Source of the DNA: Candidatus Gottesmanbacteria bacterium
GTDB taxonomy: Bacteria; Patescibacteriota; Microgenomatia; UBA10105; UBA927
DNA length: 64,000 nt
Reading direction: 5' to 3'
Assembly (NCBI GenBank): GCA_023245335.1
Contig: JAHFKK010000001.1
Location: 156,152 to 220,151, forward strand
Shown: positions 4,370-49,399 of the stretch, piece after piece
Layout of the letters: each line of letters opens with the position of its first letter
Position numbering within the stretch: the first letter of the stretch is position 1
Position numbers and translations under genes: made by a program
Notes under the pieces: generated by a model
Database searches by the model: none
What the model was told of the DNA's origin: nothing
The model's input: the letters and a program-made list of their open reading frames with translations, nothing else

Positions 4370-5443
4370 TTATAGTCGAACTACGTTGGCGTTCTCACGC
4401 ACTTCCTGTGGGACCGACTCAAAATCAGCACTGGTTATGATAGTTTGTTGTTGACTGACCACGTGACCAATGAGTGCCCGGTGCTTTTCATCGAGCTCGG
4501 AAAAAACATCATCGAGAAGCAAAAGCGGCCGACTTCCGGTTTCTCTTTCTATATACGAAAGTTCAGCGAGCTTCAGCCACAACACGACCAGACGCTGCTC
4601 CCCGCGGCTGCCAAATGCGGCGAGATCCCGATAGCTATCCTCTCCCCCCTCCAAACCGTGCTCTTTGCTAAATAAACTGATGTCGTCCCGATGCGGACCG
4701 ACAAGGGTTGATTTTGCTGCTACTTCTTCCTCCTTATATTGCTCCAGTCTGGATTCAGAAATAACACTCCGGTCATACTCTATATGAAACGCGTGTTTGA
4801 CAAGGTGTGTGGTATTGATAAATGCAAGGTATGCCGCGCGTTTTTCGGTCAAATACCCGCCCGCCCGGATCAGGAGTTGGTCCCAAAAAATGAGTTGTGT
4901 GCGGGACGCACTCCCCTCGTTGATAAGATCCAGAAGTCTATTCCGCTGCCTCAATCCGCGTTCGTAGGATATGAGATTCCGACGGTATTCCCGATCGACT
5001 TGCATAAGCACGGTATCCAAATACTTCCGGCGCACGCTGGGGCTATCGGTCACAATTTCCAAATCCTCTGGCCAAAAAAGGACCGCCCGAACATTTCCGA
5101 CAAAATCGACCATTCGACGGGAAACTCCGTTCACCGTATACTTTTTGAGCGGTGCCTTTTGACCCTGAACTTCACCGCGAGTTATCAATAATTCGAGATG
5201 TACGTGCTCTTCTTCATTTAATCGGTCACCCAGGATACGTGCCATGTCCGCATTCCATCGGATGATTTCCCGATCAAGTCCTGCGCGGAAACTTTTTCCC
5301 GTCGCAAGCATCATAATGGCTTCCAATATATTAGTTTTTCCGATCGCGTTCGGTCCGACGATACAGGTCGTGCCGGGAGAAAATGATAATATTTTTTTGG
5401 AATAACTACGAAAATTTGTCAACGTGAGGGAGGTCAGAATCAT
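4370..5443 (-). CDS. recF: DNA replication and repair protein RecF
   Basis: Begins ILTSLTLTNFRSY, has Walker A GPNAIGKTN, an SMC-like signature region and C-terminal LLLDDVFSELD. Confidence 0.85.
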   Translation of the reverse strand: MILTSLTLTNFRSYSKKILSFSPGTTCIVGPNAIGKTNILEAIMMLATGKSFRAGLDREIIRWNADMARILGDRLNEEEHVHLELLITRGEVQGQKAPLKKYTVNGVSRRMVDFVGNVRAVLFWPEDLEIVTDSPSVRRKYLDTVLMQVDREYRRNLISYERGLRQRNRLLDLINEGSASRTQLIFWDQLLIRAGGYLTEKRAAYLAFINTTHLVKHAFHIEYDRSVISESRLEQYKEEEVAAKSTLVGPHRDDISLFSKEHGLEGGEDSYRDLAAFGSRGEQRLVVLWLKLAELSYIERETGSRPLLLLDDVFSELDEKHRALIGHVVSQQQTIITSADFESVPQEVRENANVVRL

Positions 5444-5459
5444 GCGGCTATTGTAGCAT

Positions 5460-6161
5460 TTATTGGATCATTGTCCCGACAAAGGGCTTCCCATCAAGCG
5501 CTTTCTCTAAATTTTGAAGATTCTTCCCATTGAGAAGCTTGACGGTGACGCCGATCTCTTGAGCGAGCTTACTCGCGATCGGATCAAATGGCGCATTCAT
5601 GCCCGGCTTCCACGTATCGCCAATCATCGTGCGGTATTCCGCCCAGGTCATATCGCTTAATGGTTTCGCATCGGGAAATTTATTCGGGTCCTTGTTATAG
5701 ACCTGATCAACATTCGTCAGATTCACAACTTGCGCGAGTCCATAATCCTGACAGAGCGTCACTGCACAATAATCTGTACTCCATCCTGGTTTCCACCCTG
5801 CGGCGATGGCAACCGGAGATTGAATCTTCAGAATAATTTCGTAATGCTTGATCACCCGGGGATCCGCAAGATCCTGAAATATCGCCCGTATGAGCTGCGC
5901 ATTCAATCTCGTTGCATGGACACCGAGCCAATCCGCATCAATATCGCTCAAATCGTGTTGACGCACGGATCGGGCTGCAGCTTGATAGTGCCGAGTAATG
6001 GCTCCTCCACCGACCGTAATAAAAAATCTCCTCTTTTTGGAGGAGACTTGGTCACGGATGAAATCATGAAATTGGGTGAGAAACGTAACGTCGATACCGC
6101 CGTTGGGGACAATAAGCGACCCGCCTAAAGAAAGAACGAATACATTTGGATCTTGTACCAT
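5460..6161 (-). CDS. pyrH: Uridylate (UMP) kinase, archaeal-type
   Basis: Amino-acid-kinase fold with LGGSLIVP, TVGGGAITR, TNVDQVYNKDP and C-terminal GT motifs. It aligns along its length with the archaeal PyrH pattern. Confidence 0.7.
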   Translation of the reverse strand: MVQDPNVFVLSLGGSLIVPNGGIDVTFLTQFHDFIRDQVSSKKRRFFITVGGGAITRHYQAAARSVRQHDLSDIDADWLGVHATRLNAQLIRAIFQDLADPRVIKHYEIILKIQSPVAIAAGWKPGWSTDYCAVTLCQDYGLAQVVNLTNVDQVYNKDPNKFPDAKPLSDMTWAEYRTMIGDTWKPGMNAPFDPIASKLAQEIGVTVKLLNGKNLQNLEKALDGKPFVGTMIQ

Positions 6162-8365: not shown

Positions 8366-10252
8366 TTAACTCTCGCGTTCTTTTTTTCCGCCCAAAAGTA
8401 ATGCGAATTCATCGCCTTCCAGTGTTTCCTTTTTGACGAGTGCTTCGGCTACTTTATCGAGGTCAGTGCGGTGTTTTTTCACTATAGCAAGAGCGACCGC
8501 AAATCCGTCGTCAATGAGTTTTTTGATCTCCCGGTCAATAGCCGATTGCATATCGGGTGATATGGACTGCTGATCCTGATAATATTTCCCCCACTCCGTC
8601 ACATCAGATTGCGGACCGAAATTGATCGGTCCCAAATCACTCATTCCAAACTCCGTCACCATAAAACGGGCGATACGCGTCGCCTGACCAATATCGTTGG
8701 CGGCCCCGCTCGTCGTTTCCTTAAATATGACTTGCTCCGCGGCTCTCCCTCCCATCGTCATCGCGATCTCTTCGATAAGTTGGGATTTGGTTTCATGCAG
8801 ACGGTCTTTTTCAGGAGGCGCCATAGTGAATCCTAACGCCATCCCCCGGGAAACGATGCTAATCCGGTGTACGGGATCCAGATGCTTGCTGTAATAGTTG
8901 ACGACTGCATGCCCCGCTTCGTGATATGCGGTCATTTTGCGATCTAAATCAGTTTGCAGACGTTTTTTCTCTGGACCAAGTTTTACTTTCGTTGCCGCTT
9001 CCTCAAGGTCAATCATGTCAATTTCTTTTTTGTTGTCACGGGCCGCTAAAATGGCAGACTCGTTGAGCATATTCTCCAAATCCGCACCGGAAAATCCGAC
9101 CGTCCGTTTGGCAACTTTATCCCAATCAACGGGAGCAGCATATGGTTTACCGCGTGCATGAATTTTCAGGATCGCCTTACGTCCTTCCATGTCCGGCAAA
9201 TCAAGTGTGACTCGTCGGTCAAACCGGCCAGGGCGCGTGAGTGCAGGGTCCAGCAAATCACCACGGTTGGTCGCTGCAATGACCATGACGGCTGTGTTTG
9301 GCTCAAATCCGTCCATCTCTACCAATATCTGATTCAGTGTCTGTTCCCGCTCATCATGCCCGCCCATGATACCCACACTACGCATCCGACCGATGGCATC
9401 GATTTCATCGATGAATATAATTGCCGGAGCGCTTTTTTTGGCCTGTGCGAATAGATCCCGGACACGGGCCGCACCCACACCAACCAACATTTCCATAAAC
9501 TCGCTGCCGGCTATAGAATAAAACGGCACTTTCGCTTCTCCTGCGACCGCCTTGGCAAGAAGTGTCTTACCCGTTCCGGAAGGACCAATGAGGATAACTC
9601 CTTTGGGAGTGCGTGCACCTAGGGCGGTGAACTTCCCGGGGCTTTTCAGAAAATCCACGACTTCCTCAAGTTCTTTTTTCGCTTCATCGACCCCTGCGAC
9701 ATCTTTGAATGTACTTTTGGGGAGATCCTTGTTCCACACACGCGCTTTGCTTTGTCCGAAGGAGAATATATTATCCTGGGCTCCCCGCGCCTGACGGAAA
9801 AGAAAAAGGAAAAATACGACGGTCAGGACCAATGGGAGTACGTTTGAAATAAGTCCCGCGATTACCTGACTCATAGAGAGATCCTTTACGTTTATGGCAA
9901 CCGTCTTAGGATCGACACCTGACTTCTGCAGCACGTCCACAAGCGAATCTTGCGACTCCTTAATTGAAGTATATTTGGAGCCGTCTTTCTCGGTAACGGT
10001 AAGCTTGGTATCTTCAACATCTATCGATTTAATTTTTCCGGCTTTCACGTCAGTGACGACGGTAGAAAGCGGCTTACTCGTAAGGAGGGCCGCCTGATTA
10101 CTGATGCTGCCGATGAGTGAAAACACGATAAACAGCACAAATAGTCCGATGACGATATTTTTGAAATTCAGTTTCATCTGAAACTGGAAGATTTTCTTTG
10201 ATTTTTTACCGTTTCCGTTATGTTTGGGTTGCGCTGATGATTTTTCTGCCAT
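8366..10252 (-). CDS. ftsH: ATP-dependent zinc metalloprotease FtsH
   Basis: N-terminal TM, AAA module ([25 protein letters not shown]) and the zinc site HEAGHA. Confidence 0.9.
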
Positions 10253-10585: not shown

Positions 10586-12451
10586 CTACCTGATTTTCGC
10601 GCCCTTTGGCATGCCTTCAGCAGAAATAAACAGCGGTTTTAATTTATCCGCTGAATCCACAGCTAAAATCATCCCCTGACTCTCTTCATCCATCATTTTC
10701 CTTGGTGCCAGATTGGTAATGAAGAAAAACTGCTTGCCGACAAAATCTTCCGGCGTATACCCGAATCCCCGAACACCGGTAAATATAATACGCGATTTGT
10801 CTTCAGCAATATCCACCACTAATCGAATGAGCTTTTCGCTCCCCTCTTTATTTTTCGCCTCAAAAACCTTGCCGACACGGATCTCCATACGTGCGAACTC
10901 TTCTATGGAAAGGGTCGACCCGGCGGTAAGTTTGGCGTATCCAAAAAATGAATAGCTATTTGTAAGACCTATGGCCTCCCGCGCTCCAGTCATCGTCTCG
11001 ATAGCAATAGCCGTTGCACGCTCCTGTCCGCGTTTCAGGATATCCTTAACTATTGAGGGGTTGGCTTTCAGCTCGTCATACGCTTTTCTTGCAGGCGCGA
11101 AGTACATCACCAGGCATTCAAATAAGTACTTCTTGACGTCTACGTCGGCGACCGCTCCCTGTTTGTAGCTTTCTTTAAGTTCGGACACCTTACCGGGTTC
11201 ACCGAAAAAATCCAAGTATGTAAATACCATATTCCCCTCGATGTGTCCCGGGTCAGTTGCGTGCTTCCGTGCGGGGTCCGTAAAAGTGCCATGTACCTGC
11301 TTTTCTATGACTGCTTCGGGCTCAAACATACTAATAATGTTTCCGAGCGTCTTACTCATCTTTCGTTTGCCGTCAGTGCCTAATACCACAGCGACTTCTT
11401 CCGGGATGTAGGGCTCTGGCAATGTAAAAACTTTCTTCTTATAAATTTTGTTGAAGCGCTCTGCAATGTCGCGGGTAATCTCTATATGTTGTTTCTGATC
11501 CTTCCCTACCGGAACGAGATCTGCCTGATATAAAAGAATGTCCGCGGCCATAAGCATGGGATAACTGAACAACCCGACGTTAATGTCATCTTCCATGACA
11601 TCTTTCTGCAATTTATCCTTATAAGCATGCGCGCGCTTGAGAAGTCCCAACGGTGTCACGTTATTGAGGATAGACTGACACTCGGTATGCATCGGTACGT
11701 CAGACTGACGGAAAAAAACGATTTTTTCGAACTGCTCTTTTGTCAAAAATCCTTTCAGAAGTGCCAATTCGTTTAGTACTAACGCCTCGACGTTATGCTG
11801 CAGCTGTTTTTTATCTTGTATCGTCGTCAATGCATGCAGATCAGCGACCATGAGATACGTCTCGTTCGTTTTGGAAAGCTCAATAAATTGCCGCACGGCG
11901 CCAAGATAGTTACCTATATGTAGTGACCCGTCGCCGCTCGGGGTAATGCCCGAGAGGCAACGTTTTCCACTCGGTGCTTCTTGTGTGTGGTCAAAAAACG
12001 TAAAGTCCCCAACCTGTCCATGGTTTACAAAAACTAAATCCTTCGCCTCCATTGCCATACCCATCGTCTTTATTCCCCCAGTCCCGTACGCTTTGCCGAT
12101 GGACAAAACTTTTTCATCCACATAATAGGAAATGTCTAAACCGAGGTATGGTACAAGACCCACTTCTGTCCCCAATGAATGCAAATCTTCCTTGGATGCG
12201 AACACTAATTTTTTCACTCCGGCTACTTTTTTGAGTTTTTCTTGGTCAATCTGTGTATCAGCCCGCTTCGTTACCCCGATTATTCCTTTTTCCGTACGGT
12301 ACAAAATCGTTACCATGGCATTTTTCATTTTTATCCCATGAAACGCTGCGTGGGACGGGACATCCGGCGCCAATTCTTCCGGCAACGGAATGAATGTGTA
12401 TTCAACCTTTTTATCATCCAGAATATTTTTGATTTTGTCTTTAAGATTCAT
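10586..12451 (-). CDS. trpS: Tryptophanyl-tRNA synthetase with N-terminal YbaK/ProX-like deacylase domain and C-terminal Trbp111/EMAP-like tRNA-binding domain
   Basis: The class I core has HIGH-like SLHIGNYLG and KMSKT (RKMSKTLGN), with TrpRS-like GITPSG. The N-terminal ~150 aa resemble the YbaK editing fold. The C-terminal ~110 aa, EIRVGKVFEAKN...GMILA, form an OB-fold tRNA-binding domain. The start was placed at ATG 12451, which is preceded by GGAGA. The ORF-track start 12526 lacks an RBS. Confidence 0.8.
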   Translation of the reverse strand: MNLKDKIKNILDDKKVEYTFIPLPEELAPDVPSHAAFHGIKMKNAMVTILYRTEKGIIGVTKRADTQIDQEKLKKVAGVKKLVFASKEDLHSLGTEVGLVPYLGLDISYYVDEKVLSIGKAYGTGGIKTMGMAMEAKDLVFVNHGQVGDFTFFDHTQEAPSGKRCLSGITPSGDGSLHIGNYLGAVRQFIELSKTNETYLMVADLHALTTIQDKKQLQHNVEALVLNELALLKGFLTKEQFEKIVFFRQSDVPMHTECQSILNNVTPLGLLKRAHAYKDKLQKDVMEDDINVGLFSYPMLMAADILLYQADLVPVGKDQKQHIEITRDIAERFNKIYKKKVFTLPEPYIPEEVAVVLGTDGKRKMSKTLGNIISMFEPEAVIEKQVHGTFTDPARKHATDPGHIEGNMVFTYLDFFGEPGKVSELKESYKQGAVADVDVKKYLFECLVMYFAPARKAYDELKANPSIVKDILKRGQERATAIAIETMTGAREAIGLTNSYSFFGYAKLTAGSTLSIEEFARMEIRVGKVFEAKNKEGSEKLIRLVVDIAEDKSRIIFTGVRGFGYTPEDFVGKQFFFITNLAPRKMMDEESQGMILAVDSADKLKPLFISAEGMPKGAKIR

Positions 12452-12527
12452 ATTTTCTCCTTTGATATTACCATTACTTTCGTTTTGGCGCCCCACCGAT
12501 TTAGGGTAGGGCGCCTCGTACGACATT

Positions 12528-13838
12528 TTACCCTTTCATACGACCAGATAAAAATTCTTCATATGCACCCAGGTCCAATAGTCCGTGACCGGAAAGGTTG
12601 AAAAGAATCACTTTCTTTTTCCCTTCTTCTTTCGCACGCTTCGCTTCCACTATAACCTGCTGTATGGCATGCGCTGACTCCGGCGCAGGAATGATCCCCT
12701 CGGTTTGCGCAAATAACTGCGCTGCCTCAAAGACCTCGCGTTGTCCGTAGGCCACTGCTTCTATCAGTTTCTTGTAATACAAAAAGCTGATAAGCGGCGA
12801 GTCGCCATGATACCGCAGTCCCCCTGCGTGTATCGGCGACGGCACAAAGTCGCTGCCCACGGTATACATCTTGAGCATCGGCGTCATGCCAGCCGTATCG
12901 CCGGAATCATAGCGGTATTCGCCTTTGGTAAGAGACGGGCACGCATCCGGCTCCACGGCGACGACCCTAAGATTTGGCTTTTTCCCGGAGATCTTGTCTG
13001 CCAAAAACGCGAAACTCACTCCCGCGAGATTACTCCCTCCTCCGCAGCACCCGACGATGACATCCGGATACGCGCCTTCGCGTGCTAGCTGTTCTTTGGC
13101 CTCAAGACCAATGATCGACTGGTGCAGCATGACGTGATTGAGGACGCTACCAAGTGCATAGTGCGCACCGTCCGTCGTTGCCGCCACCTCTATGGCTTCC
13201 GATATGGCCATACCAAGACTGCCGGGAGTATGCGGATCTTTGGCAAGAAATGATCTTCCGGCTTGCGTTTCCCGTGATGGACTCGCAGAGACGTCAGCGC
13301 CATACAAATGCATCACCGTCTTTCTATACGGCTTTTGCTCGTACGAACTTTTGACCATAAATACTTTGCACTTGAGGTCAAAGAGTTTACACGCGAGCGC
13401 AAGCGCCGACCCCCACTGACCCGCTCCTGTTTCGGTCGTCAGCATACCCACGCCCTCCCGTTTGTTGTAATACGCCTGCGCAAGTGCGGTATTTAATTTA
13501 TGGCTCCCGACCGAGGAAACGCCCTCATACTTAAAGTAAATCTCTGCCGGCGTACCTAACGCTTCTTCCAAACGCTTCGCCCGCAAAAGCGGCGACGGCC
13601 GATACATGGCATACAACTCCCGCACTTCGTCAGGAATCGGAACAAACTCATCGAGCGTCACTTCCTGCTTGATGAGCTCCATCGGAAACAGCCGGGCTAA
13701 AGCCGCAGGACCTATCGGCTGCTTTGTCTTCGGATCCAATGGTGGAGCCGGTAATTCATGGACGTATTTATTGAGATAGTAGGAAAGATTGAGATACGTC
13801 GTCGGAATCTTCACTTTTTGCATAATATTTTGTTTCAT
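12528..13838 (-). CDS. trpB: Tryptophan synthase beta chain, TrpB2-type (stand-alone)
   Basis: 436 aa PLP enzyme of long TrpB2 length, with GSHKLN and GGGSN motifs. GGAG lies upstream of the ATG. No trpA is adjacent. Confidence 0.85.
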   Translation of the reverse strand: MKQNIMQKVKIPTTYLNLSYYLNKYVHELPAPPLDPKTKQPIGPAALARLFPMELIKQEVTLDEFVPIPDEVRELYAMYRPSPLLRAKRLEEALGTPAEIYFKYEGVSSVGSHKLNTALAQAYYNKREGVGMLTTETGAGQWGSALALACKLFDLKCKVFMVKSSYEQKPYRKTVMHLYGADVSASPSRETQAGRSFLAKDPHTPGSLGMAISEAIEVAATTDGAHYALGSVLNHVMLHQSIIGLEAKEQLAREGAYPDVIVGCCGGGSNLAGVSFAFLADKISGKKPNLRVVAVEPDACPSLTKGEYRYDSGDTAGMTPMLKMYTVGSDFVPSPIHAGGLRYHGDSPLISFLYYKKLIEAVAYGQREVFEAAQLFAQTEGIIPAPESAHAIQQVIVEAKRAKEEGKKKVILFNLSGHGLLDLGAYEEFLSGRMKG

Positions 13839-13932
13839 AATTGCTCCTTTTGAAAAATCATGTTTATATATGCGGATTTTCTTCGCCAGTATTCCCTTCT
13901 ACGACTTTGCCAGCAAATGTATGTATGCATAG

Positions 13933-14334
13933 TCATTTCAATAACTGTTCAAGCCGAACGGCTTTCATCATCGGACGGTCATGAATCACATGTCTCGTCG
14001 TCTTTGACGGAAACAGCTTGTTTTCCTTTGCCATTTCTATAACCGCCCGTTTAATCATCTTCATGAGCATTCCTTTTCGCCGCATATACACGCGCACGTT
14101 TGTATCGCTATACCGCACATAGGCTACCGGTACCCGTTTGGCCCCAAGATCACGAAGCGCCCGGACGCGGTGATGGCCGTCCAAAATCACTTCGGAATTT
14201 CTTTCGACAATCACCGGCCGACGAACAACACCATCTGTATGAATTGCAGAACGCACCGCACGTAATCGGGTACTACTCACCCGCTCATGCCCGATGAGTT
14301 TATCGATACGCACCAATATAATTTTCTGTTTCAT
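13933..14334 (-). CDS. ParB/Srx-fold (ParB N-terminal-like nuclease domain) protein
   Basis: 133 aa with an ILDGHHRVRALRDLG motif typical of ParB-like nuclease/sulfiredoxin fold. Confidence 0.45.
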   Translation of the reverse strand: MKQKIILVRIDKLIGHERVSSTRLRAVRSAIHTDGVVRRPVIVERNSEVILDGHHRVRALRDLGAKRVPVAYVRYSDTNVRVYMRRKGMLMKMIKRAVIEMAKENKLFPSKTTRHVIHDRPMMKAVRLEQLLK

Positions 14335-14337
14335 AGG

Positions 14338-14409
14338 CGGGCGAGGTAGGCTTCGATCCTACGACACGAGTTTTGGAGACTCGCGTTTTTCCAACTAAAC
14401 TACTCACCC
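14338..14409 (-). tRNA. tRNA-Trp (anticodon CCA)
   Basis: Hand-folded from the minus strand: GGGTGAG TA GTTT AGTTGGAA AAAC G CGAGT CTCCAAA ACTCG TGTC GTAGG ATCGAAG CCTAC CTCGCCC G. It has a 7-bp acceptor stem with one GU pair, GG in the D loop and anticodon CCA. T-loop position 54 is A, which is atypical. CCA is not encoded. Confidence 0.75.
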
Positions 14410-14411
14410 AT

Positions 14412-14460
14412 AAAAAAACCCTTGTAAATCCACGAGGAACATCTCGTAAACTTACAAGGG
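14412..14460 (-). terminator. Rho-independent terminator-like hairpin + U-run (minus strand)
   Basis: Inverted repeat CCCTTGTAA...TTACAAGGG at 14419-14460. On the minus strand it is followed by a 7-nt T-run (plus A-run at 14412-14418). Confidence 0.4.
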
Positions 14461-14494
14461 CCTTTGTGGCTATACCACCTTGCGCTGTTATCCT

Positions 14495-14518
14495 AAAAAA
14501 ATGCTTCCCGAAGGAAGC
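14495..14518 (-). terminator. Second terminator-like hairpin + U-run (minus strand)
   Basis: Perfect hairpin GCTTCC-CGAA-GGAAGC at 14503-14518 with an A-run at 14495-14501 on plus (U-run on minus). Confidence 0.4.
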
Positions 14519-14737
14519 ACGTCATTTGAGGATAACCTCATTCATGACGAGCTCCGACCAATCGACACTCGTTGACTGACTTTTGACGGTTTCGCCTCCG
14601 GACAAAACATCTCTTTTGAAGTAGCTTTGTCAGCGCCTGATCTTCCGATCAAATGAGAGAATCCCAATCAATCCCCTCTACGCTTTTATTCACTTGTGAG
14701 GATATAGTATAGCATACGAGTCAAATAATCCAGTATA

Positions 14738-15037
14738 ATGACGTCTATGGATATCGGAAAAATTTCATACTGGTCCCGGAGAATCCACCGCATCTCATTG
14801 TTTTTCGTCACTGGCCTAGGGCTCGTACAAGTCGTTACCGGCCTGACGCTCAAGTACCCGACCATGATGTCATTCATAAACTATGAATGGGCGTTTCAGG
14901 TGCATATCTTCACGAGCGTCTATTTTGCCGTATTTTTCGTCATTTCCATGATCACTGGCCTTATCATGTACTTCGCGCCATGGCTTCTTAAATACTTCAA
15001 TAAACCCGGAATCCCCCCCACGAAACTTCCGAACTGA
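14738..15037 (+). CDS. Small hypothetical membrane protein (2-3 TM)
   Basis: 99 aa, strongly hydrophobic. TATAAT at 14734-14739 lies just upstream. An alternative start at 14747 (MDIGK) is possible. Confidence 0.35.
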   Translation: MTSMDIGKISYWSRRIHRISLFFVTGLGLVQVVTGLTLKYPTMMSFINYEWAFQVHIFTSVYFAVFFVISMITGLIMYFAPWLLKYFNKPGIPPTKLPN

Positions 15038-15088
15038 CTTTGCGCGGGTTCTCCGTATACGCTATAATACAAAAGTACATTCACGTAC

Positions 15089-15158
15089 CGCGGGGTAGTG
15101 TAAAGTCGCACAGGAGGCTCATAATCTCCTAGGCCGGGTGCGATTCCCGGCCCCGCAA
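15089..15158 (+). tRNA. Initiator-like tRNA (anticodon CAU) with atypical D and T loops; possible tRNA-fMet or pseudo-tRNA
   Basis: Hand-folded: CGCGGGG TA GTGT AAAGTC GCAC A GGAGG CTCATAA TCTCC TAGG CCGGG TGCGATT CCCGG CCCCGCA A. The acceptor stem (CGCGGGG/CCCCGCA with a C1-A72 mismatch and A73) and the anticodon loop CUCAUAA are identical to E. coli tRNA-fMet. However, the D loop is only 6 nt and lacks G18G19, T-loop position 55 is G, and only 2 of the 3 G-C pairs of the initiator anticodon stem are present. Confidence 0.5.
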
Positions 15159-15170
15159 CACAGTACGGAT

Positions 15171-17121: not shown

Positions 17122-17193
17122 CGCCAGGGTAGCTCAGTGGTAGAGCAGCATCTTCATAAGGTGACGGTCGTGGGTCCGACCCCCACTCCTGGC
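17122..17193 (+). tRNA. tRNA-Met elongator-type (or tRNA-Ile2-lysidine) anticodon CAU
   Basis: Hand-folded: GCCAGGG TA GCTC AGTGGTA GAGC A GCATC TTCATAA GGTGA CGGTC GTGGG TCCGACC CCCAC TCCTGGC A. It has a G1-C72 pair and no initiator features. T-loop position 55 is C, which is atypical. Confidence 0.75.
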
Positions 17194-17220
17194 ACATATG
17201 GCAATAGACGTGTGTCAGAT

Positions 17221-18889: not shown

Positions 18890-19044
18890 GAAAAGCGACT
18901 GAATCCCGCCAGTCACGGGATAAGCTGCAAACTGAACAGAGAGTAAGTTTGCCGGGTAAGCCCGTCACCGCTCAAGCGAGAAGTAAATAAGGTGGTACCG
19001 CGAATGTCCGTTCGCCCTTATAATAGGGATGAACGGATTTTTTT
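18890..19044 (+). promoter_or_regulatory. T-box riboswitch leader, Val specifier (GUA), controlling valS
   Basis: A specifier-loop-like CAGAGA-GUA-A lies at 18937-18946. The T-box consensus AAUAAGGUGGUACCGCG is at 18986-19002. A terminator hairpin UCCGUUC...GAACGGA plus U7 at 19007-19044 directly abuts the valS ATG. Confidence 0.55.
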
Positions 19045-21342
19045 ATGGATAAAAACTTTGATTCGAAGACGGCTGAAGAGGGCATATATCGGACGTGGGA
19101 ATCCGGAGGATACTTCACTCCGGCCATTGACCCGAAGAAAAAGCCGTTCACCATACTCCTACCTCTCCCTAACGCAAATGACCCCATGCATATGGGTCAC
19201 GCCATGTTTACTGTGCAGGACATCCTCATCCGTTATCACCGCATGAAGGGTGACCCGACATTATGGCTACCCGGAGGCGATCATGCAGGCATAGAGACGC
19301 AATATGTATTTGAAAAACGACTCGCGAAAGAAGGAAAAAGCAGATTCCAGTTCGACCGCGAGACGCTCTATACGATGATCGAGGCATTCGTCGAGCAAAA
19401 CAAAACCACCAACCGCGATCAAATGAAGCGCCTGGGCTTCTCAATGGACTGGTCACGATACCGCTACTCTTTGGATCCGGATATTGTAGCAACGGTACTG
19501 GATACATTCCGAAAAATGCATGAAGACGGTCTTGCCTATCGGGACTCCAGACTCGTCAACTACTGTACGAAGGACGGCACAGGATTCTCCGACCTAGAAG
19601 TTCTCTATGTCGAACGTACCGATCCTCTGTATTACATGAAATACGGACCGTTTACCGTAGCGACCGTCCGCCCAGAAACGAAATTCCGCGATACCGCTCT
19701 CGCCGTCAATCCGAAAGATAAACGCTACAAAGATGCGATAGGAAAGACATATGAAATCGTGGGGCTTTTGGGGCCGGTCAAAATGACGGTCATCCCCGAC
19801 CCTGACGTCGATCCCTCTTTTGGCACCGGAATTATGAAAGTCACTCCGGCGCATGACCCGCATGATTTTGAACTCGGGAAAAAATTTAATCTACCGGTCA
19901 CGCCGATTATCGATCAACGCGGACGCATGGACTTCGCGTGGTTTCTCACCCAACAGGATAGTAATCCTAAATATCGGGAGCGCGCAGAAAAATATCATGG
20001 CAAAAAGGTGGCTGAAGCGCGAGCGATCATGGTTGAAGACCTTAAGGCAGACGGATTACTCATCAAAATCGATGAAAACTATGTACATCGGATAGGCACA
20101 TGTTATCGTTGCGGATCAGTTCTGGAACCGCTCCCGATCCCCCAGTGGTATGTCAAAACAAAACCGCTTGCTAAAAAAGCAATCCGGGCAGTCAAAGACG
20201 GAAAGACAAAAATAGTTCCGAAAAAAAGATTTGAGAAGATGTATTTTGACTGGATGAATAACATTCTCGACTGGAACATCAGCCGCCAGATTGTATGGGG
20301 ACCGCGCATACCGGTCTGGTATTGTCTCGATTGTAACCCGGATATCACTATTAGTTTTATCGACAAACAACTAGCGAAAATCTTCGGCGATTACAAAAGC
20401 ATTATTTCCAAATATCAATTTTCCGATCTGAAGAAGGGATTACAATCGCTAAGTGCCCCGCTCCATGCGACATATTCACTCTCACCTGAGCCATGCCAAA
20501 AATGCCATAGCACACATGTTCTTCAGGAAACCGACACCTTCGACACCTGGTTCCTTTCCAGCCAGTGGCCTATGACCACGTTGGGGTTTCCTGACAGCGC
20601 GGACTTCAAATATTTTTATCCAACCTCTGTTTTGGACACCATGTGGGATATATTATTTTTCTGGGTGGCTCGCATGATGATGATGGGTCTCTATCGTACC
20701 GGAAATATTCCGTTTGAGGTTATCCATCTTCACAGCCGCGTCGTAGATCAGCATGGTAAAAAAATGAGTAAAAGCAAAGGCAACGTCATGAATCCTATCG
20801 ACATGGTCGACAAATACGGAGCGGACGCACTTCGTATGGCGCTCATATATGGGGCGGCGCCCGGAAGCGACATCGCCATCTCCGAGGACAAAATTCGGGG
20901 CATGAGGAACTTTGCCAACAAACTCTGGAACATGGGCCGGTTTATCCATATGAACATCGACGCCACAGGAAAAGAAATCCCGTTTTACGACAATGAATTT
21001 CATAAAACGCTCACAGACGCCAATGACAAACGGATCATTTCCGAACTCAACATGCTGACTGCGGGCGTTACCAAGGATATCGAGCGATACCGGTTTTCCG
21101 ATGCCGCTCAGGCGATCTATGAGTTTGCCTGGCATCGGGTGGCCGACGTCCATTTGGAAAAAAATAAGGACCGTTTCAAATCGGGCGATATCCAAGCAAT
21201 TACGGTGTTACGGCATGTGTATATCACACTTCTCAAATTGCTTCATCCGTTCATGCCGTTTGTCACCGAATCCGTATGGGCGACATTCCCGCGCAAACGC
21301 ACGGAACCTCTCATCGTCTCTTCCTGGCCAACTGCAGGATAG
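19045..21342 (+). CDS. valS: Valyl-tRNA synthetase (short form, no C-terminal coiled-coil)
   Basis: Class I HIGH (PMHMGHA) and KMSKS (KMSKSKGN). A ValRS-type N-terminus (YRTWESGGYFTP), an editing domain and a T-box(Val) leader upstream. Confidence 0.85.
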   Translation: MDKNFDSKTAEEGIYRTWESGGYFTPAIDPKKKPFTILLPLPNANDPMHMGHAMFTVQDILIRYHRMKGDPTLWLPGGDHAGIETQYVFEKRLAKEGKSRFQFDRETLYTMIEAFVEQNKTTNRDQMKRLGFSMDWSRYRYSLDPDIVATVLDTFRKMHEDGLAYRDSRLVNYCTKDGTGFSDLEVLYVERTDPLYYMKYGPFTVATVRPETKFRDTALAVNPKDKRYKDAIGKTYEIVGLLGPVKMTVIPDPDVDPSFGTGIMKVTPAHDPHDFELGKKFNLPVTPIIDQRGRMDFAWFLTQQDSNPKYRERAEKYHGKKVAEARAIMVEDLKADGLLIKIDENYVHRIGTCYRCGSVLEPLPIPQWYVKTKPLAKKAIRAVKDGKTKIVPKKRFEKMYFDWMNNILDWNISRQIVWGPRIPVWYCLDCNPDITISFIDKQLAKIFGDYKSIISKYQFSDLKKGLQSLSAPLHATYSLSPEPCQKCHSTHVLQETDTFDTWFLSSQWPMTTLGFPDSADFKYFYPTSVLDTMWDILFFWVARMMMMGLYRTGNIPFEVIHLHSRVVDQHGKKMSKSKGNVMNPIDMVDKYGADALRMALIYGAAPGSDIAISEDKIRGMRNFANKLWNMGRFIHMNIDATGKEIPFYDNEFHKTLTDANDKRIISELNMLTAGVTKDIERYRFSDAAQAIYEFAWHRVADVHLEKNKDRFKSGDIQAITVLRHVYITLLKLLHPFMPFVTESVWATFPRKRTEPLIVSSWPTAG

Positions 21343-23624: not shown

Positions 23625-24188
23625 TCATCCGCGCTCGAGGTAGGTACCGGTCTCAGGATCTATCCCGATGACGTCTCCAAATTTGATAAATAACGGAACG
23701 GTAATCACGGCTCCCGTCTCAACCACAACTGTTTTTGTCGCGCCGCTTGCGGTATTACCCTTTGCACCCTCTTCCGCCTCTGTTACTTTCAGCCATACTT
23801 TTTTGGGAAATCTTATACCCACTGCTTCTTCACCATAGACGAGTACCTGATAAGCATCATTCGGTTTCAAATACTTGATGAATCCTTCCAACAACCCCTC
23901 GGAAATATTGTATTGTTCATAACTGAAGTTATCCATGAACACGTACGAATCGCTTTCTTTATAAAGATATTGCATCTCCCGAGTGTTGATGGGGAGCTCC
24001 TCGGCCGACTCACCGGATTTAAAAGTAAACTCCTGCACTTTTCCTGTTTTCAGACTTCTTAGTTTTGTGCGGACAAAGGCAGACCCCTTGCCGGGGTTGA
24101 CGAACTGCATGTCGGTTATAAGATGTGGCACATCCTTAAACTCGATGAACATGCCTTTTTTAAACTGGGCGGTCGTAATGGTTGACAT
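23625..24188 (-). CDS. efp: Elongation factor P
   Basis: MSTITTAQFKKGMFIEF...VNPGKGSAFVRTKL, with the conserved PGKG lysine loop. The start was trimmed to the internal ATG at 24188. Confidence 0.85.
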   Translation of the reverse strand: MSTITTAQFKKGMFIEFKDVPHLITDMQFVNPGKGSAFVRTKLRSLKTGKVQEFTFKSGESAEELPINTREMQYLYKESDSYVFMDNFSYEQYNISEGLLEGFIKYLKPNDAYQVLVYGEEAVGIRFPKKVWLKVTEAEEGAKGNTASGATKTVVVETGAVITVPLFIKFGDVIGIDPETGTYLERG

Positions 24189-24256
24189 AAAAAAAACCCT
24201 TATGGCATTCGGGGATTCTATTATCCCACGCACGCTCAAGAATCGCAAGCTAAATA

Positions 24257-24841
24257 CTACTGTTTCGTGCCAAGACTCGTTGGGGTGTGTCGCCGCAAAA
24301 TCAAATAGATAATCCCACAATCCAATCCGATGACATAAAGAGGATAAGCCAACTCACTCACGGTCCGTTGATTGAGAGCCGCGAGTGTGCATAGCGCCGC
24401 CAACACGTCGAGAAAATAAAATGTCCAGACCTCGGTTTCAGGAAGTCGATAGGTTTTCACTAGCATAGGAATTTGTCCGACGAAATCCGCACTTATTGAC
24501 GCCATAAATCCATACATCGGATCTGATGTCGCACGCCAAAAAAATATCCCAATTACGGAAATAACAAGGCAAACGATATCTGTTTTCGCCCATCCGCCCA
24601 TGCCTCGCGGGATACTTAAAACGAAAATTATAAGTGATCCTAACGCGAATATCACCGACAACCAGACAGCAACAGTACTCCCCTGTGCAAACAACGCTAT
24701 CATGGCGAGTGTCGTAATGACCGCGGTACAAAATCGTGTCGTCCGATGCGGCTTTGCTTCGCCCCGAAAAATTGCAACGACATAGACAACATAAGAAACA
24801 ACGGCAAATATGCTACTCAGCATAATGAGTGCGAATCTCAT
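24257..24841 (-). CDS. Hypothetical polytopic membrane protein (~6 TM)
   Basis: 194 aa, highly hydrophobic, lying between efp and epmA. Confidence 0.45.
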   Translation of the reverse strand: MRFALIMLSSIFAVVSYVVYVVAIFRGEAKPHRTTRFCTAVITTLAMIALFAQGSTVAVWLSVIFALGSLIIFVLSIPRGMGGWAKTDIVCLVISVIGIFFWRATSDPMYGFMASISADFVGQIPMLVKTYRLPETEVWTFYFLDVLAALCTLAALNQRTVSELAYPLYVIGLDCGIIYLILRRHTPTSLGTKQ

Positions 24842-24844
24842 AGA

Positions 24845-25906
24845 TTATTGAAATAATTCATCTGCTGGAAATAACAAGGTATCCTGTATCCTTGCGGCAT
24901 TTGCAAACAACATAACCAATCGATCAACTCCCACTGCTATGCCGCTGCACGCCGGGAGCCCAATCTTTAAAGCGTCAATAAAATTGTGGTCATAATCATA
25001 CATTGTTTTTCCAAGCCGCTTGATCTCTTTCAGCTCATTTTCAAATCGCTCCTTTTGTTCCTTCCAGTCAGTCAACTCACTGTAGCAATCACCAAGCTCC
25101 AGACCCTCAATGTAAAACTCAAATCGTTCTGCGAACCGGAGATCCGACGATTTCTTTTTGGCGAGGGCCCCCATAACGCCTGGAAATTCATAGAGAATCG
25201 TCGGGCGGGATTTTCCTAAATGTGGTTCTATTTCATTGAGAAAAATTTGATTATAGAGTTCTTCCCACGTTGTCTTCTTCTCTACGGAATATCCTTTCTT
25301 TCGAGCGATGTGTCGGGCGGTTGGTTCGCGCAAAAAATTATCGAAGTCTATATGTGCCCATTTAGCGAACGCTTCCACAATGGTTAATCGCTCCCAGGGG
25401 GATGCCAGGTTTACGTGGTGATCCTGATACACAAGTTCTTCCGGATGTTTCGTTTCTTCTCCGGGGGTTGTTCGTTTTAAGTAGGTGTTGATGAATACCA
25501 ATAGTTCTTCACAATCTTCCATGATGTCCCGGTAATCCGCGCCGACGCGATACCATTCAAGTATCGTAAATTCGGGGTTGTGGAGTGTGCTTTGCGTCTC
25601 CATATTGCGAAAGCTTTTCGTGAGTGCGTAACAATTTCCAAGACCTGCGACTATAAGTTTTTTGAGCGGCACTTCCGGCGATGTTGAGAGGTATGCTTTG
25701 GTCGGTTTCCTGTTGCGGTCTAAAAGCGTCGTCTCAAATATATCCAGGTAACTTTCTGCGGGTGGACGCGCGATAAGAAGCGGTGTTTCCACTTCATGAA
25801 ACTGCCGATTGAAAAAAAATGTGCGAATTGCCGTGATAACTTTTTCCCGGATGAAATACCGTTGCCACAACTGAGGATTTTTATTGAGCATCTGCCATGT
25901 TTTCAT
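24845..25906 (-). CDS. epmA: EF-P--(R)-beta-lysine ligase EpmA (GenX/PoxA; LysRS class II paralogue)
   Basis: Class II motifs FHEVETPLL, FRNMETQSTLHNPEFTILEWY and GLPACSGIAVGVDRLVML. It aligns block by block with E. coli EpmA and has no anticodon-binding domain. The start was trimmed to MKTWQ. Confidence 0.8.
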   Translation of the reverse strand: MKTWQMLNKNPQLWQRYFIREKVITAIRTFFFNRQFHEVETPLLIARPPAESYLDIFETTLLDRNRKPTKAYLSTSPEVPLKKLIVAGLGNCYALTKSFRNMETQSTLHNPEFTILEWYRVGADYRDIMEDCEELLVFINTYLKRTTPGEETKHPEELVYQDHHVNLASPWERLTIVEAFAKWAHIDFDNFLREPTARHIARKKGYSVEKKTTWEELYNQIFLNEIEPHLGKSRPTILYEFPGVMGALAKKKSSDLRFAERFEFYIEGLELGDCYSELTDWKEQKERFENELKEIKRLGKTMYDYDHNFIDALKIGLPACSGIAVGVDRLVMLFANAARIQDTLLFPADELFQ

Positions 25907-25958
25907 AAGGATGTTCGCATTACTCGTAGGATAATTATACGTCAACAGAACAAGAACA

Positions 25959-26231
25959 TTACTTTGAGCGGCGGCGTTTCGGCGGGGGGCTTTTTGGCGA
26001 AGAAGAAAATGCTTTTGCCACAAAGATAAGATATAGGATTTCAATGATACCGGCTGTGTGCACAACCATGAAAAGTATAAACCACCATTTCTCATTACGC
26101 TTCGCTGCATTCCAAAGCGCGAATCCCGTCCATACTACAGACCATAAAGCAAGAAGTATGAATCCTCCGAAAAATGGATTGCCTCCTCCCCATGCATTAT
26201 TTCCTAACCACCATGGCATACTGTTCATCAT
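25959..26231 (-). CDS. Small hypothetical membrane protein (uncertain; overlaps epmA 5' end)
   Basis: MMNSMPWWLGNNAWGGG... with two TM helices. It overlaps the modelled epmA start by ~50 nt, so one of the two starts is probably wrong. Confidence 0.25.
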   Translation of the reverse strand: MMNSMPWWLGNNAWGGGNPFFGGFILLALWSVVWTGFALWNAAKRNEKWWFILFMVVHTAGIIEILYLIFVAKAFSSSPKSPPPKRRRSK

Positions 26232-35514: not shown

Positions 35515-35763
35515 CTATTTATAGGTTTTCGGCAGCGGGTCCCATCCGCCGGGATTCCATGGATGGCACCGCACTATCCGCTTAAATCCCAAAATTGATC
35601 CTCTGATTATACCATAGCGCTCTATTGCTTGATACGTATACTCGCTGCAGGTCGGACGGAATCGACACGCGCTGTCAACCAGCCAAAGCTTCTTCAACGC
35701 CCCGGTATCAGGAGAAAGATATCGCTGATACCATCTGATGACGCGGAGTATCGTTTTCCTCAT
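35515..35763 (-). CDS. yidD: Membrane protein insertion efficiency factor YidD
   Basis: 82 aa with YQRYLSP, CRF.PTCSEY and [10 protein letters not shown] signatures. Confidence 0.8.
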
Positions 35764-36098
35764 ACCGATAATATGCGTGCCTGTACAAAAGCCCTGCGCA
35801 CAATACGATCAACTTCTGTTTGTGAATCTGGTACTCTGCTACGCAGAGTTAACACAACGTCATACCCACCGGATACATCCGAGAGTAAATGGCGTACCGA
35901 CTCACTAATGAGCCTTCGCATCCGATTCCGCGTCGTCGCACGCTTGTCTATGCGTGTCGAGACGACGATCGTGCAGCGCAAATGCTCGTTTGTGGTTTTC
36001 AACATTTTTAACTCAAGACCTTCGTGGACGATTCGCTCTTTTTGACGCATGACACCGCGTAGGAACCGCGAGGGAATTCTGTAGGGCTTCGGGAGCAT
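35760..36098 (-). CDS. rnpA: Ribonuclease P protein component
   Basis: 112 aa basic protein with RNR.KR block RNRMRRLI, in the rpmH-rnpA-yidD-yidC order. Confidence 0.8.
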
Positions 36099-40740: not shown

Positions 40741-40804
40741 ACGGATATAGTAGGACACATCGGGCCTTTTTGCACCCGCCTTCTCCCAACGCGGTTGATG
40801 TCCT

Positions 40805-40850
40805 TGACAAAGAGTGGATTGTTGTCTAGTATGTGGAAAAGTTTTCCACA
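40805..40850 (+). promoter_or_regulatory. dnaA promoter (TTGACA-N17-TAGTAT) with palindromic pair of DnaA boxes
   Basis: TTGACA at 40805-40810 and TAGTAT at 40828-40833. TGTGGAAAA/TTTTCCACA inverted DnaA boxes at 40833-40850, just upstream of the dnaA start at 40870. Confidence 0.5.
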
Positions 40851-40869
40851 TTCTGCTCCGGGTCTTCAT

Positions 40870-42237
40870 ATGGATCTAACACGACTTTGGAAATCGGTGC
40901 TGTCGGAAATTGAATTATCGGTTTCAAAGGCCACGTATCAAACGCACTTTGCGCATTCCCTTTTGTTGTCCCTGGATGAGGGTGTCGCGTCAATTGCGTT
41001 TCCAAGCCCCCTCATGCGAACACTTGCTGAAACCCGCTACTACAGTCTTATTAAAAATATTCTTGACCACAAAACCGACGCCAATACAAGCCTTGTTTTT
41101 TCTGTATTACCAAGAAAAGAGCCGTCGGAAAAAGACGCGGGGCCGCTTTTCTCTCAAACCATGGACCCGACCCCCAACACAAACGTGCTCGCAAAAAAAC
41201 TTCACATAAACGCGGAATTGCGATTTGACAACTTTGCGGTCTCGACGACAAATCAACTCGCGTACGCCGCAACCACCGCGGTCGCCAAAAATCCCGGGTC
41301 GGCGTATAACCCCTTGTTCCTCTATGGGGGGGTGGGGGTGGGGAAAACGCACCTTATGTACGCAATAGCAAACGCGCTTCTCGCCAAAAAGCCCTCCGCG
41401 CGCGTTGTCTACTGCATGGGAGAGGAGTTTTTGAACGAAATTATTGAGTCGATTCAAATGCGTTCAACCCGACAGTTCAAACAAAAATATAGGGGGGCGG
41501 AACTTCTAATGGTTGATGACGTACAATTTATCGCCGGCAAACAAACCGCGCAGGAAGAGTTTTTTCATACGTTTAATGCCGTGCTTCGCGAGGGGGGGCA
41601 GATCCTTCTCACCTCAGATCGTCCGCCGCATGAAATTTCCCGGCTTGAAGACCGGCTGAGAAGCCGGTTTGAGGGCGGCCTTATTGTTGATATTTCCCCT
41701 CCGGACTTCGAGCTTCGGGCTGCCATCGTCAACATCAAATCCAAGGCTTTGGGCGTTACGGTTCCTTCTGATTGCGCACAGCTTGTCGCCGCAAACGTCG
41801 TCGACGCGAGAGCTATTGAGGGTTTTTTGCGGCGCCTGACGACAGAGCTTGCCACAAAGCCACAACCCATAACCCCAGAGCTCATATCGGGTCTTCTCAA
41901 CGCAAAGTCCGTATTTACCAATCACGCCCAAACCCCAAGGCGGGTATCCCCACAAGAACTTATGGATGCGGTTTCTCTTTATTTCAACATTAAGCCCACA
42001 CAATTAAAGGGCCCGAAGCGCGACCGACCCATCGCCAGGCCCAGACAGGTATTTATGTATCTTGCCAAAACCGAACTTGGGATTACGTACGAAGACATTG
42101 GTGGGTCCCTGGGGGGGCGGGACCATACGACCATTATGCACGGGGTAAACACAATTACCCAGGAGTTGTCCACAAACGAGGCTCTCCGGCAGGCGGTGGC
42201 GGGGATAAAACTCAAATTATGGACTCCCTCAATATGA
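40870..42237 (+). CDS. dnaA: Chromosomal replication initiator DnaA
   Basis: AAA+ region GGVGVGKTHL, LLMVDDVQF, sensor motifs and a C-terminal DNA-binding domain (GGRDHTTIMHG). The start was trimmed to MDLTRLWKSVL. Confidence 0.9.
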   Translation: MDLTRLWKSVLSEIELSVSKATYQTHFAHSLLLSLDEGVASIAFPSPLMRTLAETRYYSLIKNILDHKTDANTSLVFSVLPRKEPSEKDAGPLFSQTMDPTPNTNVLAKKLHINAELRFDNFAVSTTNQLAYAATTAVAKNPGSAYNPLFLYGGVGVGKTHLMYAIANALLAKKPSARVVYCMGEEFLNEIIESIQMRSTRQFKQKYRGAELLMVDDVQFIAGKQTAQEEFFHTFNAVLREGGQILLTSDRPPHEISRLEDRLRSRFEGGLIVDISPPDFELRAAIVNIKSKALGVTVPSDCAQLVAANVVDARAIEGFLRRLTTELATKPQPITPELISGLLNAKSVFTNHAQTPRRVSPQELMDAVSLYFNIKPTQLKGPKRDRPIARPRQVFMYLAKTELGITYEDIGGSLGGRDHTTIMHGVNTITQELSTNEALRQAVAGIKLKLWTPSI

Positions 42238-46769: not shown

Positions 46770-46774
46770 GGTGG

Positions 46775-49388: not shown

Positions 49389-49399
49389 AAAGATATGTG

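Follow-up and report, generated by a model that had tools for sequence, protein, structure and literature searches.

A tryptophan-centred operon of a Gottesmanbacteria bacterium with a predicted miniature serine kinase, TrpB2 and a T-box-type leader

A stretch of 64,000 nucleotides of DNA from Candidatus Gottesmanbacteria bacterium (contig JAHFKK010000001.1), in the following called the window, encodes on its minus strand a co-linear set consisting of a tRNA-Trp with the anticodon CCA, a 133-aa open reading frame (ORF), the stand-alone enzyme TrpB2, and a three-domain tryptophanyl-tRNA synthetase (TrpRS). It is probable that these genes form, together with a leader RNA of the T-box type, a single regulated unit for the conversion of free indole into Trp-tRNA(Trp) at a shortage of tryptophan (Trp), via the 133-aa protein as a miniature serine kinase (mini-SerK), TrpB2, TrpRS, and the T-box. 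An operon of four functional parts and a riboswitch is likely. An original prediction, made from the sequence alone, had placed the four elements on this strand and had read them as a Trp-centred operon. All four were recovered by ARAGORN, Rfam, Pfam, and NCBIfam, and the Trp-centred reading is strongly supported. The proposed tie between a stand-alone TrpB2 and the charging of tRNA-Trp stands, based on the T-box, the Trp depletion of the operon proteins, and the Trp sensors of relatives; serine as the substrate that is joined to indole probably has to be replaced by O-phospho-L-serine.

The tRNA-Trp gene (14336-14409, minus strand as all elements of the operon; Rfam tRNA score 60.2 bits) has a G as discriminator and an encoded 3' end CC-U. 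It is followed by the genes for mini-SerK (13933-14334), TrpB2 (12528-13838, 436 aa, with the Shine-Dalgarno sequence AAAGGAG upstream), and the TrpRS fusion (10586-12526, an ORF of 646 aa). The same gene set was found again in relatives and, thus, the arrangement is not due to chance. The closest relatives belong to the Patescibacteria and mostly carry the label Gottesmanbacteria, and the same sequence is also present on a contig of about 1.2 Mb and in several metagenomes (e.g., ENA ERZ27279942). All statements on gene content refer to the 64 kb of this contig that make up the window. In agreement with the earlier claim that no trpA, trpC, trpD, or trpE lies nearby, neither these genes nor trpF or trpG were found in a Pfam scan of 40 other ORFs of the window, all of which fall into the groups of housekeeping, cell-envelope, replication-origin (dnaA/dnaN), and type-IV-secretion-like genes.

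The 133-aa protein and its enzyme partners

The 133-aa ORF has a weak, sub-threshold match to ParB_N in Pfam. In NCBIfam, it matches best to SerK, the ADP-dependent L-serine kinase of archaea (E 1.9e-20), and to SbnI, which synthesises O-phospho-L-serine (E 3.9e-10). In a phmmer search of the PDB, the protein aligned in two blocks to the free serine kinase of Thermococcus kodakarensis (5X0B) and to PF0380 of P. furiosus (1VK1), with residues 5-96 corresponding to SerK residues 18-116 and residues 94-131 to SerK residues 204-241. Residue E17 within the sequence GHERV aligns with Glu30 of SerK (within PHEQL of 5X0B), which is the position mutated in the entries 5X0J and 5X0E (E30Q, E30A). A model calculated with AlphaFold2 (AF2), with a predicted local distance difference test (pLDDT) score of 84, was matched by Foldseek over its full length to SerK (query-normalised TM-score 0.83-0.84 to 1VK1 and 5X0B) and SbnI (0.74-0.75), and the motifs LDGHHR and KTTRH, which align to SerK, are invariant in 32 diverse homologues, with the HE motif containing E17 being kept in at least 90 % of them. 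The N-terminus is also conserved in homologues, which supports the ATG at 14334 as the start codon.

Family members have uniform lengths of 125-160 aa, and 1,685 cluster representatives from bacteria and archaea were found at E <= 1e-10. In databases, they are named 'ParB N-terminal domain-containing protein', 'transcriptional regulator', and once 'L-serine kinase (ADP)'. A canonical ParB, acting as a partition protein or nuclease, was considered and ruled out: Pfam found neither a helix-turn-helix (HTH) nor any other DNA-binding domain in the 133 residues, and structures of ParB and Noc gave TM-scores below 0.5, with matches only to a core of about 80 residues. Judged by sequence and predicted structure, the 133-aa protein is homologous to the free serine kinases SerK and SbnI but truncated, and it is most likely a miniature serine kinase supplying O-phospho-L-serine. 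The original prediction had left this ParB/Srx-fold protein unexplained, a gap for which the homology to SerK and SbnI now offers a likely answer.

The second protein-coding gene encodes a clear TrpB2, with 686 bits to NF009057 (cutoff 366) and 625 bits to TIGR01415 (cutoff 519). It aligns to the TrpB2 structures of S. solfataricus with E-values of 7e-132 (6HUL) and 1e-120 (4QYS), including the GSHK motif with the lysine that binds pyridoxal 5'-phosphate (PLP). The physiological role of TrpB2 has been debated since two types of TrpB were distinguished. In the literature, TrpB2 enzymes have been described as indole-scavenging, and a dependence on O-phospho-L-serine has been reported for them (Busch 2014, as cited in PMC11917138), with in vitro studies indicating this compound as the substrate. 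By analogy, O-phospho-L-serine rather than serine is probably the substrate of the TrpB2 in the window.

For an analysis of gene neighbourhoods, loci from genomes and metagenomes were retrieved with the narrower alignment A2 of the family, the alignment A1 being too diverse, and pooled into 140 distinct mini-SerK loci (L numbers; proteins have P numbers). A TrpB2 gene was counted as a neighbour if its product was at least 50 % identical to the TrpB2 of the window and if it was adjacent and on the same strand. TrpB2 adjoins mini-SerK in 80 of the 140 loci and is absent from 37, and the flanks of the other 23 were too short to judge. Hosts of mini-SerK loci include Patescibacteria, Bacillota, Caldisericota, Ignavibacteriales, Micrarchaeota, Diapherotrites, and Nitrososphaeria, and start and stop codons of mini-SerK and TrpB2 genes overlap in several loci. 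A CysK-like PLP enzyme is encoded adjacent to mini-SerK in 13 of the TrpB2-free loci, and a few mini-SerK loci have a ThrC-like enzyme as neighbour. Fusions also occur: protein P0294 combines an intact mini-SerK and a cysteine synthase (TIGR01136, 396 bits) in one polypeptide, and P0224 has two SerK-like repeats and a CysK-like domain. SerK has been reported to feed a CysK that uses O-phosphoserine, and SbnI makes O-phosphoserine for the synthesis of staphyloferrin B. The most parsimonious view of these gene contexts is that O-phosphoserine is provided by mini-SerK for its respective fold-type II PLP enzyme, which would be TrpB2 in the window. In a further form of the family (P0219, P0222), mini-SerK is duplicated in tandem within proteins of 610-649 aa, with long linkers of low complexity.

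The last gene of the operon encodes a TrpRS (TIGR00233, 275 bits, cutoff 176.75) with the Pfam domains tRNA_edit, tRNA-synt_1b, and tRNA_bind. Translation probably starts at M26 (ATG at 12451) because AAAGGAG precedes this codon and homologues have 617-621 aa. A YbaK/ProX-fold domain (~11969-12451; PF04073, 44.5 bits, cutoff 25.5) is followed by the class-I catalytic core with the motifs HIGN and KMSKT (~10964-11965) and by a tRNA-binding domain of the Trbp111/EMAPII type (~10601-10882), an architecture that is found in dozens of proteins from Gottesman- and Roizmanbacteria. The AF2 model of the N-terminal domain (pLDDT 93) matches ProX/YbaK structures (2Z0K, 2CX5, 1DBX) with query-normalised Foldseek TM-scores of 0.82-0.83 and a root-mean-square deviation of about 2 Å. 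The 'KTL' active-site lysine is important in YbaK/ProX/INS domains. The lysine of 'VKTLIV' in 1WDV (APE2540) aligns to the valine of 'AMVTILY' in the window protein, in an alignment of about 20 % identity that could be shifted, and the family consensus AMATILY has an alanine at this position. With valine or alanine in place of the lysine, a classical deacylase role of the domain is uncertain; TrpRS is not known to edit.

The composition of the cassette varies among relatives. In L085 and L086, a gene for an amino-acid racemase (TIGR00035, 116 bits) replaces those for kinase and TrpB2 between tRNA-Trp and TrpRS (5315-6004 and 5303-6004 of the respective locus). In L089 (7226-7933) and L134 (~1883-2600), the racemase gene is present alongside mini-SerK and TrpB2. 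These proteins are related to cysteate racemase, and a role in another route to L-Trp, e.g., from D-Trp, is pure speculation.

Leader RNA, tRNA gene, and response to tryptophan shortage

Upstream of the tRNA gene, a Trp-specific T-box-type leader of 280 nt (14411-14690) was found, which is kept in at least 14 relatives and has a minimum free energy of -111 kcal/mol (z = -7.6). Its 5' end is marked by the motif AAUAAAAGCG (14690-14681). About 16 nt upstream of this motif, a promoter-like extended -10 element can be read from the sequence (TGcTATACT, 14706-14714), and an element TGnTATA(C/A)T is located at the same distance in L004, L005, L087, L099, L101, and L108. A sigma-70 scan, which needs a -35 element at a spacing of 16-18 nt, did not report the site at 14706-14714. 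The functional unit thus reaches to about 14714, which is about 300 nt 5' of the coordinates first given, and given the promoter-like element and the T-box leader, the 5' end of the transcript would be expected near 14700 instead of at 14409, where the original prediction had put it.

The leader begins with an ultrashort Stem I (14632-14684), in which a basal AGCG/CGCU helix encloses a hairpin with the terminal loop UUGAUUGGGA (14671-14662). This loop contains a UGG specifier at 14666-14664. RNAfold placed UGG in the hairpin loop of each of 12 leaders, with compensatory changes in the stem, and UGG is located in the Stem I loop of every Trp leader examined. Stem I consists of a basal helix of 35-70 nt and one hairpin and has no distal platform of interdigitated T-loops for the tRNA elbow. 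It is followed by Stem II and the IIA/B-like element CCGUCAAAAG and then by a GC-rich hairpin with a U-run (14501-14520), which was detected in a terminator scan. An equivalent hairpin with a U-tract is present in the leaders of all relatives. The element resembles a terminator by itself and could represent Stem III with a pause site.

The T-box sequence GGUGGUAUAGCC (14479-14468) is part of the antiterminator (14454-14483), which is composed of the helices A1 and A2 and a 7-nt bulge, UGGUAUA (14477-14471). An intrinsic terminator with a 20-bp stem (14417-14462) and a U7 tail up to 14411 ends the leader, and the 5' strand of the terminator overlaps the 3' strand of the antiterminator at 14462-14454. 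Both structures are supported by covariation in 12 aligned leaders (alignment A3) compared with 500 shuffles. For the antiterminator, 94.4 % of the alignment cells pair and four of nine pairs show compensatory changes; for the terminator, the respective values are 98.7 % and nine of 20 pairs. None of the 500 shuffles reached the score of either structure, and sliding of the register abolishes the covariation signal. The bulge reads UGG(U/C)ACC in most relatives and is degenerate in some (CGGCACA in L099). Its variable base, U or C, is opposite the discriminator G73 of the adjacent tRNA-Trp, and the same U:G wobble occurs in 46 % of the Trp T-boxes in TBDB. The leader is filed here as a variant T-box combining an ultrashort Stem I with a transcription terminator. 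In Caldisericota, a T-box with the specifier UGG that is recognised by Rfam (118 bits) is located directly upstream of TrpB2/mini-SerK (L054). Attenuation by a leader peptide was ruled out for the window locus, as the small ORFs between 14700 and 14411, read by eye, contain no Trp codon.

A second leader with the same ultrashort Stem I design is present in the window at 18890-19041 (plus strand) in front of valS (19045-21342; NCBIfam, 792 bits). Its loop CCAGUCA (18909-18915) contains the valine codon GUC, and a TTGACA-N18-TATAAT promoter, a T-box sequence (18991-19002), and a terminator that closely precedes the ATG are further elements of this leader region. At the gathering threshold, Rfam makes no T-box call for this leader either.

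The tRNA-Trp gene is inserted tightly between leader and operon. It starts 2 nt after the U-run of the terminator, and the ATG of the kinase gene follows 1 nt after the tRNA (G73-CC-U-AUG), so that a Shine-Dalgarno sequence would not fit in between. The junction of tRNA and kinase gene is identical in L087, L094, L098, L099, and L101, and the order of leader, tRNA, and gene recurs in at least eight distinct lineages. In L108, L134, L085, L086, L089, and L015, tRNA-Trp is encoded elsewhere in the same operon. Versions without a tRNA in front of the kinase gene (L004-L007, L089) have a normal Shine-Dalgarno sequence at this place. A promoter scan found no separate promoter for the tRNA. The change from CC to UA in the bulge, which creates TGGTATAGC, was considered as a tRNA promoter and rejected, as the essential final T is missing and the transcript would still meet the terminator. 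The tRNA would, therefore, be made by read-through of the T-box terminator, and its 3' processing would leave a nearly leaderless kinase mRNA.

Further signs of a response to Trp shortage are found in the proteins of the operon and in other loci. Of the 1,215 residues of the three proteins, a single one is Trp, compared with 15.1 expected from the window background of 1.24 % (P = 4e-6), and the valyl-tRNA synthetase and the EpmA-like protein of the window have about 2.1-2.2 % Trp. In other Patescibacteria, short ORFs with many Trp codons, e.g., MKNKMNLKKWWTCQLW and MKIYIIKTSWWTTTRW, and terminator hairpins behind them precede TrpB2/mini-SerK(-TrpRS) and look like classical trp attenuators. A gene of the TrpR family (PF01371, E 5e-20) is often located upstream and was found within 2.5 kb in 17 loci. 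The upstream sequence was long enough in 67 TrpB2-linked loci, and a T-box motif or a Trp leader peptide was seen in 42 of these, compared with one T-box motif and five Trp leader peptides in the 37 TrpB2-free controls. Leader ORFs with tandem Trp codons (e.g., MKNKINSNNWWTSNLW) were seen upstream of TrpB2 in L008-L013, L020, L024, L035, L040, L102, L112-L114, L124, and others.

Proposed route and competing explanations

In the proposed route, transcription would start near 14700 and enter the T-box leader, in which the UGG specifier would pair with the CCA anticodon and the UGGU of the bulge with the uncharged 3' end (G73-CCA) of tRNA-Trp. Uncharged tRNA-Trp would stabilise the antiterminator; otherwise, the 20-bp terminator would form. 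Read-through would yield a common transcript of tRNA-Trp, mini-SerK, TrpB2, and TrpRS, in this order; once the tRNA is cut out, the kinase mRNA probably has almost no leader, with 1-4 nt remaining before the AUG. The mini kinase of the SerK/SbnI type would then convert L-serine to O-phospho-L-serine, TrpB2 would condense this compound with presumably scavenged indole to L-Trp, and TrpRS with its YbaK/ProX-like and tRNA-binding domains would charge tRNA-Trp.

Several observations weigh against this route. On the enzyme side, mini-SerK scores 73 bits with NF053625 at a cutoff of 380, about 90 internal SerK residues (117-203, most of the C-terminal domain) have no counterpart in it, and it does not have the full two-domain architecture of about 240-255 aa that characterises SerK and SbnI. 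Kinase activity is, therefore, not assured. In a recent survey, one SerK-like protein was found to bind CTP instead of ATP, which bears on whether ATP, ADP, or CTP would be the phosphate donor. The long family members that were checked are fusions of the CysK type, tandem repeats, or unrelated fusions, with no case of mini-SerK joined to TrpB2, and two close relatives (L085, L086) have leader, tRNA-Trp, and TrpRS while TrpB2 and mini-SerK are absent from the locus. On the RNA side, the bulge in the window is UGGUAUA and not the conserved UGGNACC, and the Rfam T-box model RF00230 (gathering threshold 93 bits) has no match in the window even at E <= 10. As leaders of relatives reach only 13.8 and 17.2 bits with this model, too, membership in the T-box class is argued from anatomy and covariation. 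According to a review on T-boxes, transcriptional T-boxes need a long Stem I and ultrashort forms are tied to translational T-boxes. Finally, if expression of a tRNA gene requires read-through that is brought about by the same tRNA, a bootstrapping problem arises, which a leaky terminator or a second tRNA-Trp gene would solve.

The missing part of the C-terminal domain and the sub-threshold score would also fit a 133-aa protein that is not a kinase at all but a nucleotide-binding or regulatory partner with a ParB/Srx fold, such as a switch, a regulator binding DNA or RNA, or a non-catalytic subunit acting on TrpB2 as TrpA does on TrpB1; in this case, TrpB2 would rely on L-serine or on O-phosphoserine from another source. 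The annotation of SbnI is that of a bifunctional transcriptional regulator, ParB-fold proteins bind various nucleoside triphosphates without being enzymes, and NCBI names some members of the family 'transcriptional regulator'. However, a regulator of this kind would have to do without an HTH or another DNA-binding domain, and there is little or no variation across phyla in the catalytic Glu and in the two SerK motifs. The common factor of the linked or fused PLP enzymes, which are TrpB2, CysK-like, and occasionally ThrC-like, is an O-phosphoserine-type substrate and not a regulator, and T-box, leader peptides, or TrpR already account for regulation. A non-kinase role is, thus, considered unlikely. 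Somewhat less probable still is a different chemistry of the locus, in which TrpB2 would catalyse a β-elimination of serine or phosphoserine, a β-replacement with another nucleophile, or the last step of a complete trp pathway encoded elsewhere in the genome. TrpB-type enzymes are promiscuous, the examined DNA covers only 64 kb of the contig, and a trpB2 of Geobacter is located within a trp operon. Against this stand the Trp-specific sensors in front of TrpB2/mini-SerK units in many phyla, comprising T-boxes with UGG, leader peptides with WW, and genes of the TrpR family. The linkage to TrpRS and tRNA-Trp and the Trp-depleted proteins also point to Trp supply, and no recurrent cluster of trpA/C/D/E/F/G was found beside the TrpB2/mini-SerK pair when 80 genome loci were clustered.

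There is only a slim chance that tRNA-Trp is an independent gene whose position between leader and first ORF is accidental, with the hairpins terminating another minus-strand transcript. Rfam does not call a T-box here, tRNA genes are often insertion points of mobile elements, and the closest relatives in the genome collection (L004-L007) have no tRNA at this position. But the gaps of only 2 nt between U-run and tRNA and 1 nt between tRNA and ATG contain no promoter-like site, the versions with the tRNA have no Shine-Dalgarno sequence while those without it do, and the layout recurs in lineage after lineage. In addition, there is no upstream minus-strand transcript to be terminated, as the neighbouring genes at 14738-15159 are on the plus strand. 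All in all, a Trp-responsive unit with mini-SerK as the supplier of O-phosphoserine for TrpB2 is the reading that is preferred here.

Genomic context, known systems, and significance

The gene directly upstream of the Trp leader (14738-15037, plus strand) is divergently oriented and encodes a predicted membrane protein of 99 aa without a family match, which is also called as a gene in contigs of the same species (96 aa in L001 and L003). Two tRNA-Met genes (15089-15159 and 17123-17195) flank this region. At the other end of the operon, no terminator between TrpRS and ftsH was evident from a terminator scan and the sequence; FtsH (8366-10252) was identified from its own sequence and from Pfam matches of its orthologues. 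Five small ORFs at 59.7-62.7 kb and the ORF at 35629-36045 were outside the Pfam scan, and the overlapped ORF at 24257-24841 was scanned without a match. The genes dnaA (40795-42237) and dnaN (42416-43525) are located at the minimum of the cumulative GC-skew, which indicates that the window spans the replication origin. A type-IV-secretion-like cluster at 44520-53074 encodes an M23 peptidase, a VirB4/TraG-like ATPase, a PrgI-family protein, and a VirD4-like coupling protein. Elongation factor P (EF-P; 23625-24320, minus strand) is encoded near an EF-P lysine aminoacylase of the EpmA/GenX type (24845-26110, minus strand; TIGR00462, 328 bits), which by Pfam alone would appear as a class-II aminoacyl-tRNA synthetase-like protein. 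An HMG-CoA reductase (62695-63858, plus strand; PF00368, E 1e-119) is also encoded in this member of the small-genome Patescibacteria.

The predicted pairing of kinase and PLP enzyme resembles two known systems. In the staphyloferrin B cluster of Staphylococcus aureus, SbnI and SbnA are likewise a serine kinase with a ParB/Srx fold and a fold-type II PLP enzyme encoded in one cluster, and SbnI and mini-SerK share the DGHHR-type motif and the overall fold. However, SbnI has about 254 aa, a C-terminal domain, and a regulatory role, whereas mini-SerK has 133 aa, and the partner of mini-SerK is not SbnA but TrpB2, the product of which is a proteinogenic amino acid. SerK (TK0378), which acts together with CysK in T. 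kodakarensis, is the best match in sequence and structure, with its Glu30 corresponding to E17. It makes O-phosphoserine for a PLP-dependent β-replacement enzyme, and the same role is predicted for mini-SerK. In contrast to the ADP-dependent SerK of 242 aa, mini-SerK is devoid of residues 117-203, occurs widely among bacteria and archaea, and has TrpB2 as its main partner. The TrpB2 of the window belongs to the same family as the indole-salvage enzymes of Thermotoga maritima, S. solfataricus, and T. kodakarensis. For these, neither a source of O-phosphoserine nor a dedicated operon partner was described in the papers found, whereas the TrpB2 of the window is encoded together with a predicted kinase, TrpRS, and tRNA-Trp, under probable Trp-specific control.

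The leader shares the UGGN bulge, the alternative antiterminator and terminator, a specifier matching the function of the operon, and the U:G73 wobble of Trp T-boxes with the transcriptional T-boxes of Firmicutes (RF00230). It differs from them by its ultrashort Stem I with the specifier in the terminal loop, its occurrence in Patescibacteria, a score below that required by Rfam, and a first gene that encodes the ligand tRNA. A missing distal platform and a retained Stem II and IIA/B-like region (CCGUCAAAAG) are also known from the ultrashort Stem I T-boxes of actinobacterial ileS. While these act on translation by sequestering the Shine-Dalgarno sequence, the leader in the window ends in a strong intrinsic terminator and should, therefore, act on transcription, a combination that is treated as atypical in the review. 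A search of the literature, which had most subscription journals outside its reach, found nothing relevant on T-boxes in the candidate phyla radiation or on tRNA genes controlled by T-boxes, no link of TrpB2 to a SerK-, SbnI-, or ParB-like protein, and no dedicated supply route of O-phosphoserine for TrpB2.

If the proposed route is true, this supply step would be filled by a conserved partner that is homologous to the only known free serine kinases. It would also explain the expense of a phosphoryl group, as the better leaving group would help to scavenge scarce indole. The authors of the SerK study did not find clear homologues outside four archaeal genera and reported a restriction to Thermococcales and Desulfurococcales; the family is now widened from a few genera of hyperthermophilic archaea to about 1,700 sequence clusters in bacteria and archaea. 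It is conceivable, though on balance somewhat doubtful, that mini-SerK proteins are widespread and so far unrecognised suppliers of O-phosphoserine for TrpB2, for CysK-type, and possibly for ThrC-type enzymes. The same tentative grade applies to a modular cassette leading from indole to Trp-tRNA, with kinase and TrpB2, a racemase, or both, and to a T-box that controls the gene of its own ligand and gives rise to a leaderless kinase mRNA. Patescibacteria appear to use T-boxes that are missed by current covariance models and that combine an ultrashort Stem I with transcription termination, and a T-box in front of the very tRNA it senses would be an unusual feedback layout. The locus as a whole would represent a compact strategy of a small-genome symbiont for acquiring one expensive amino acid.

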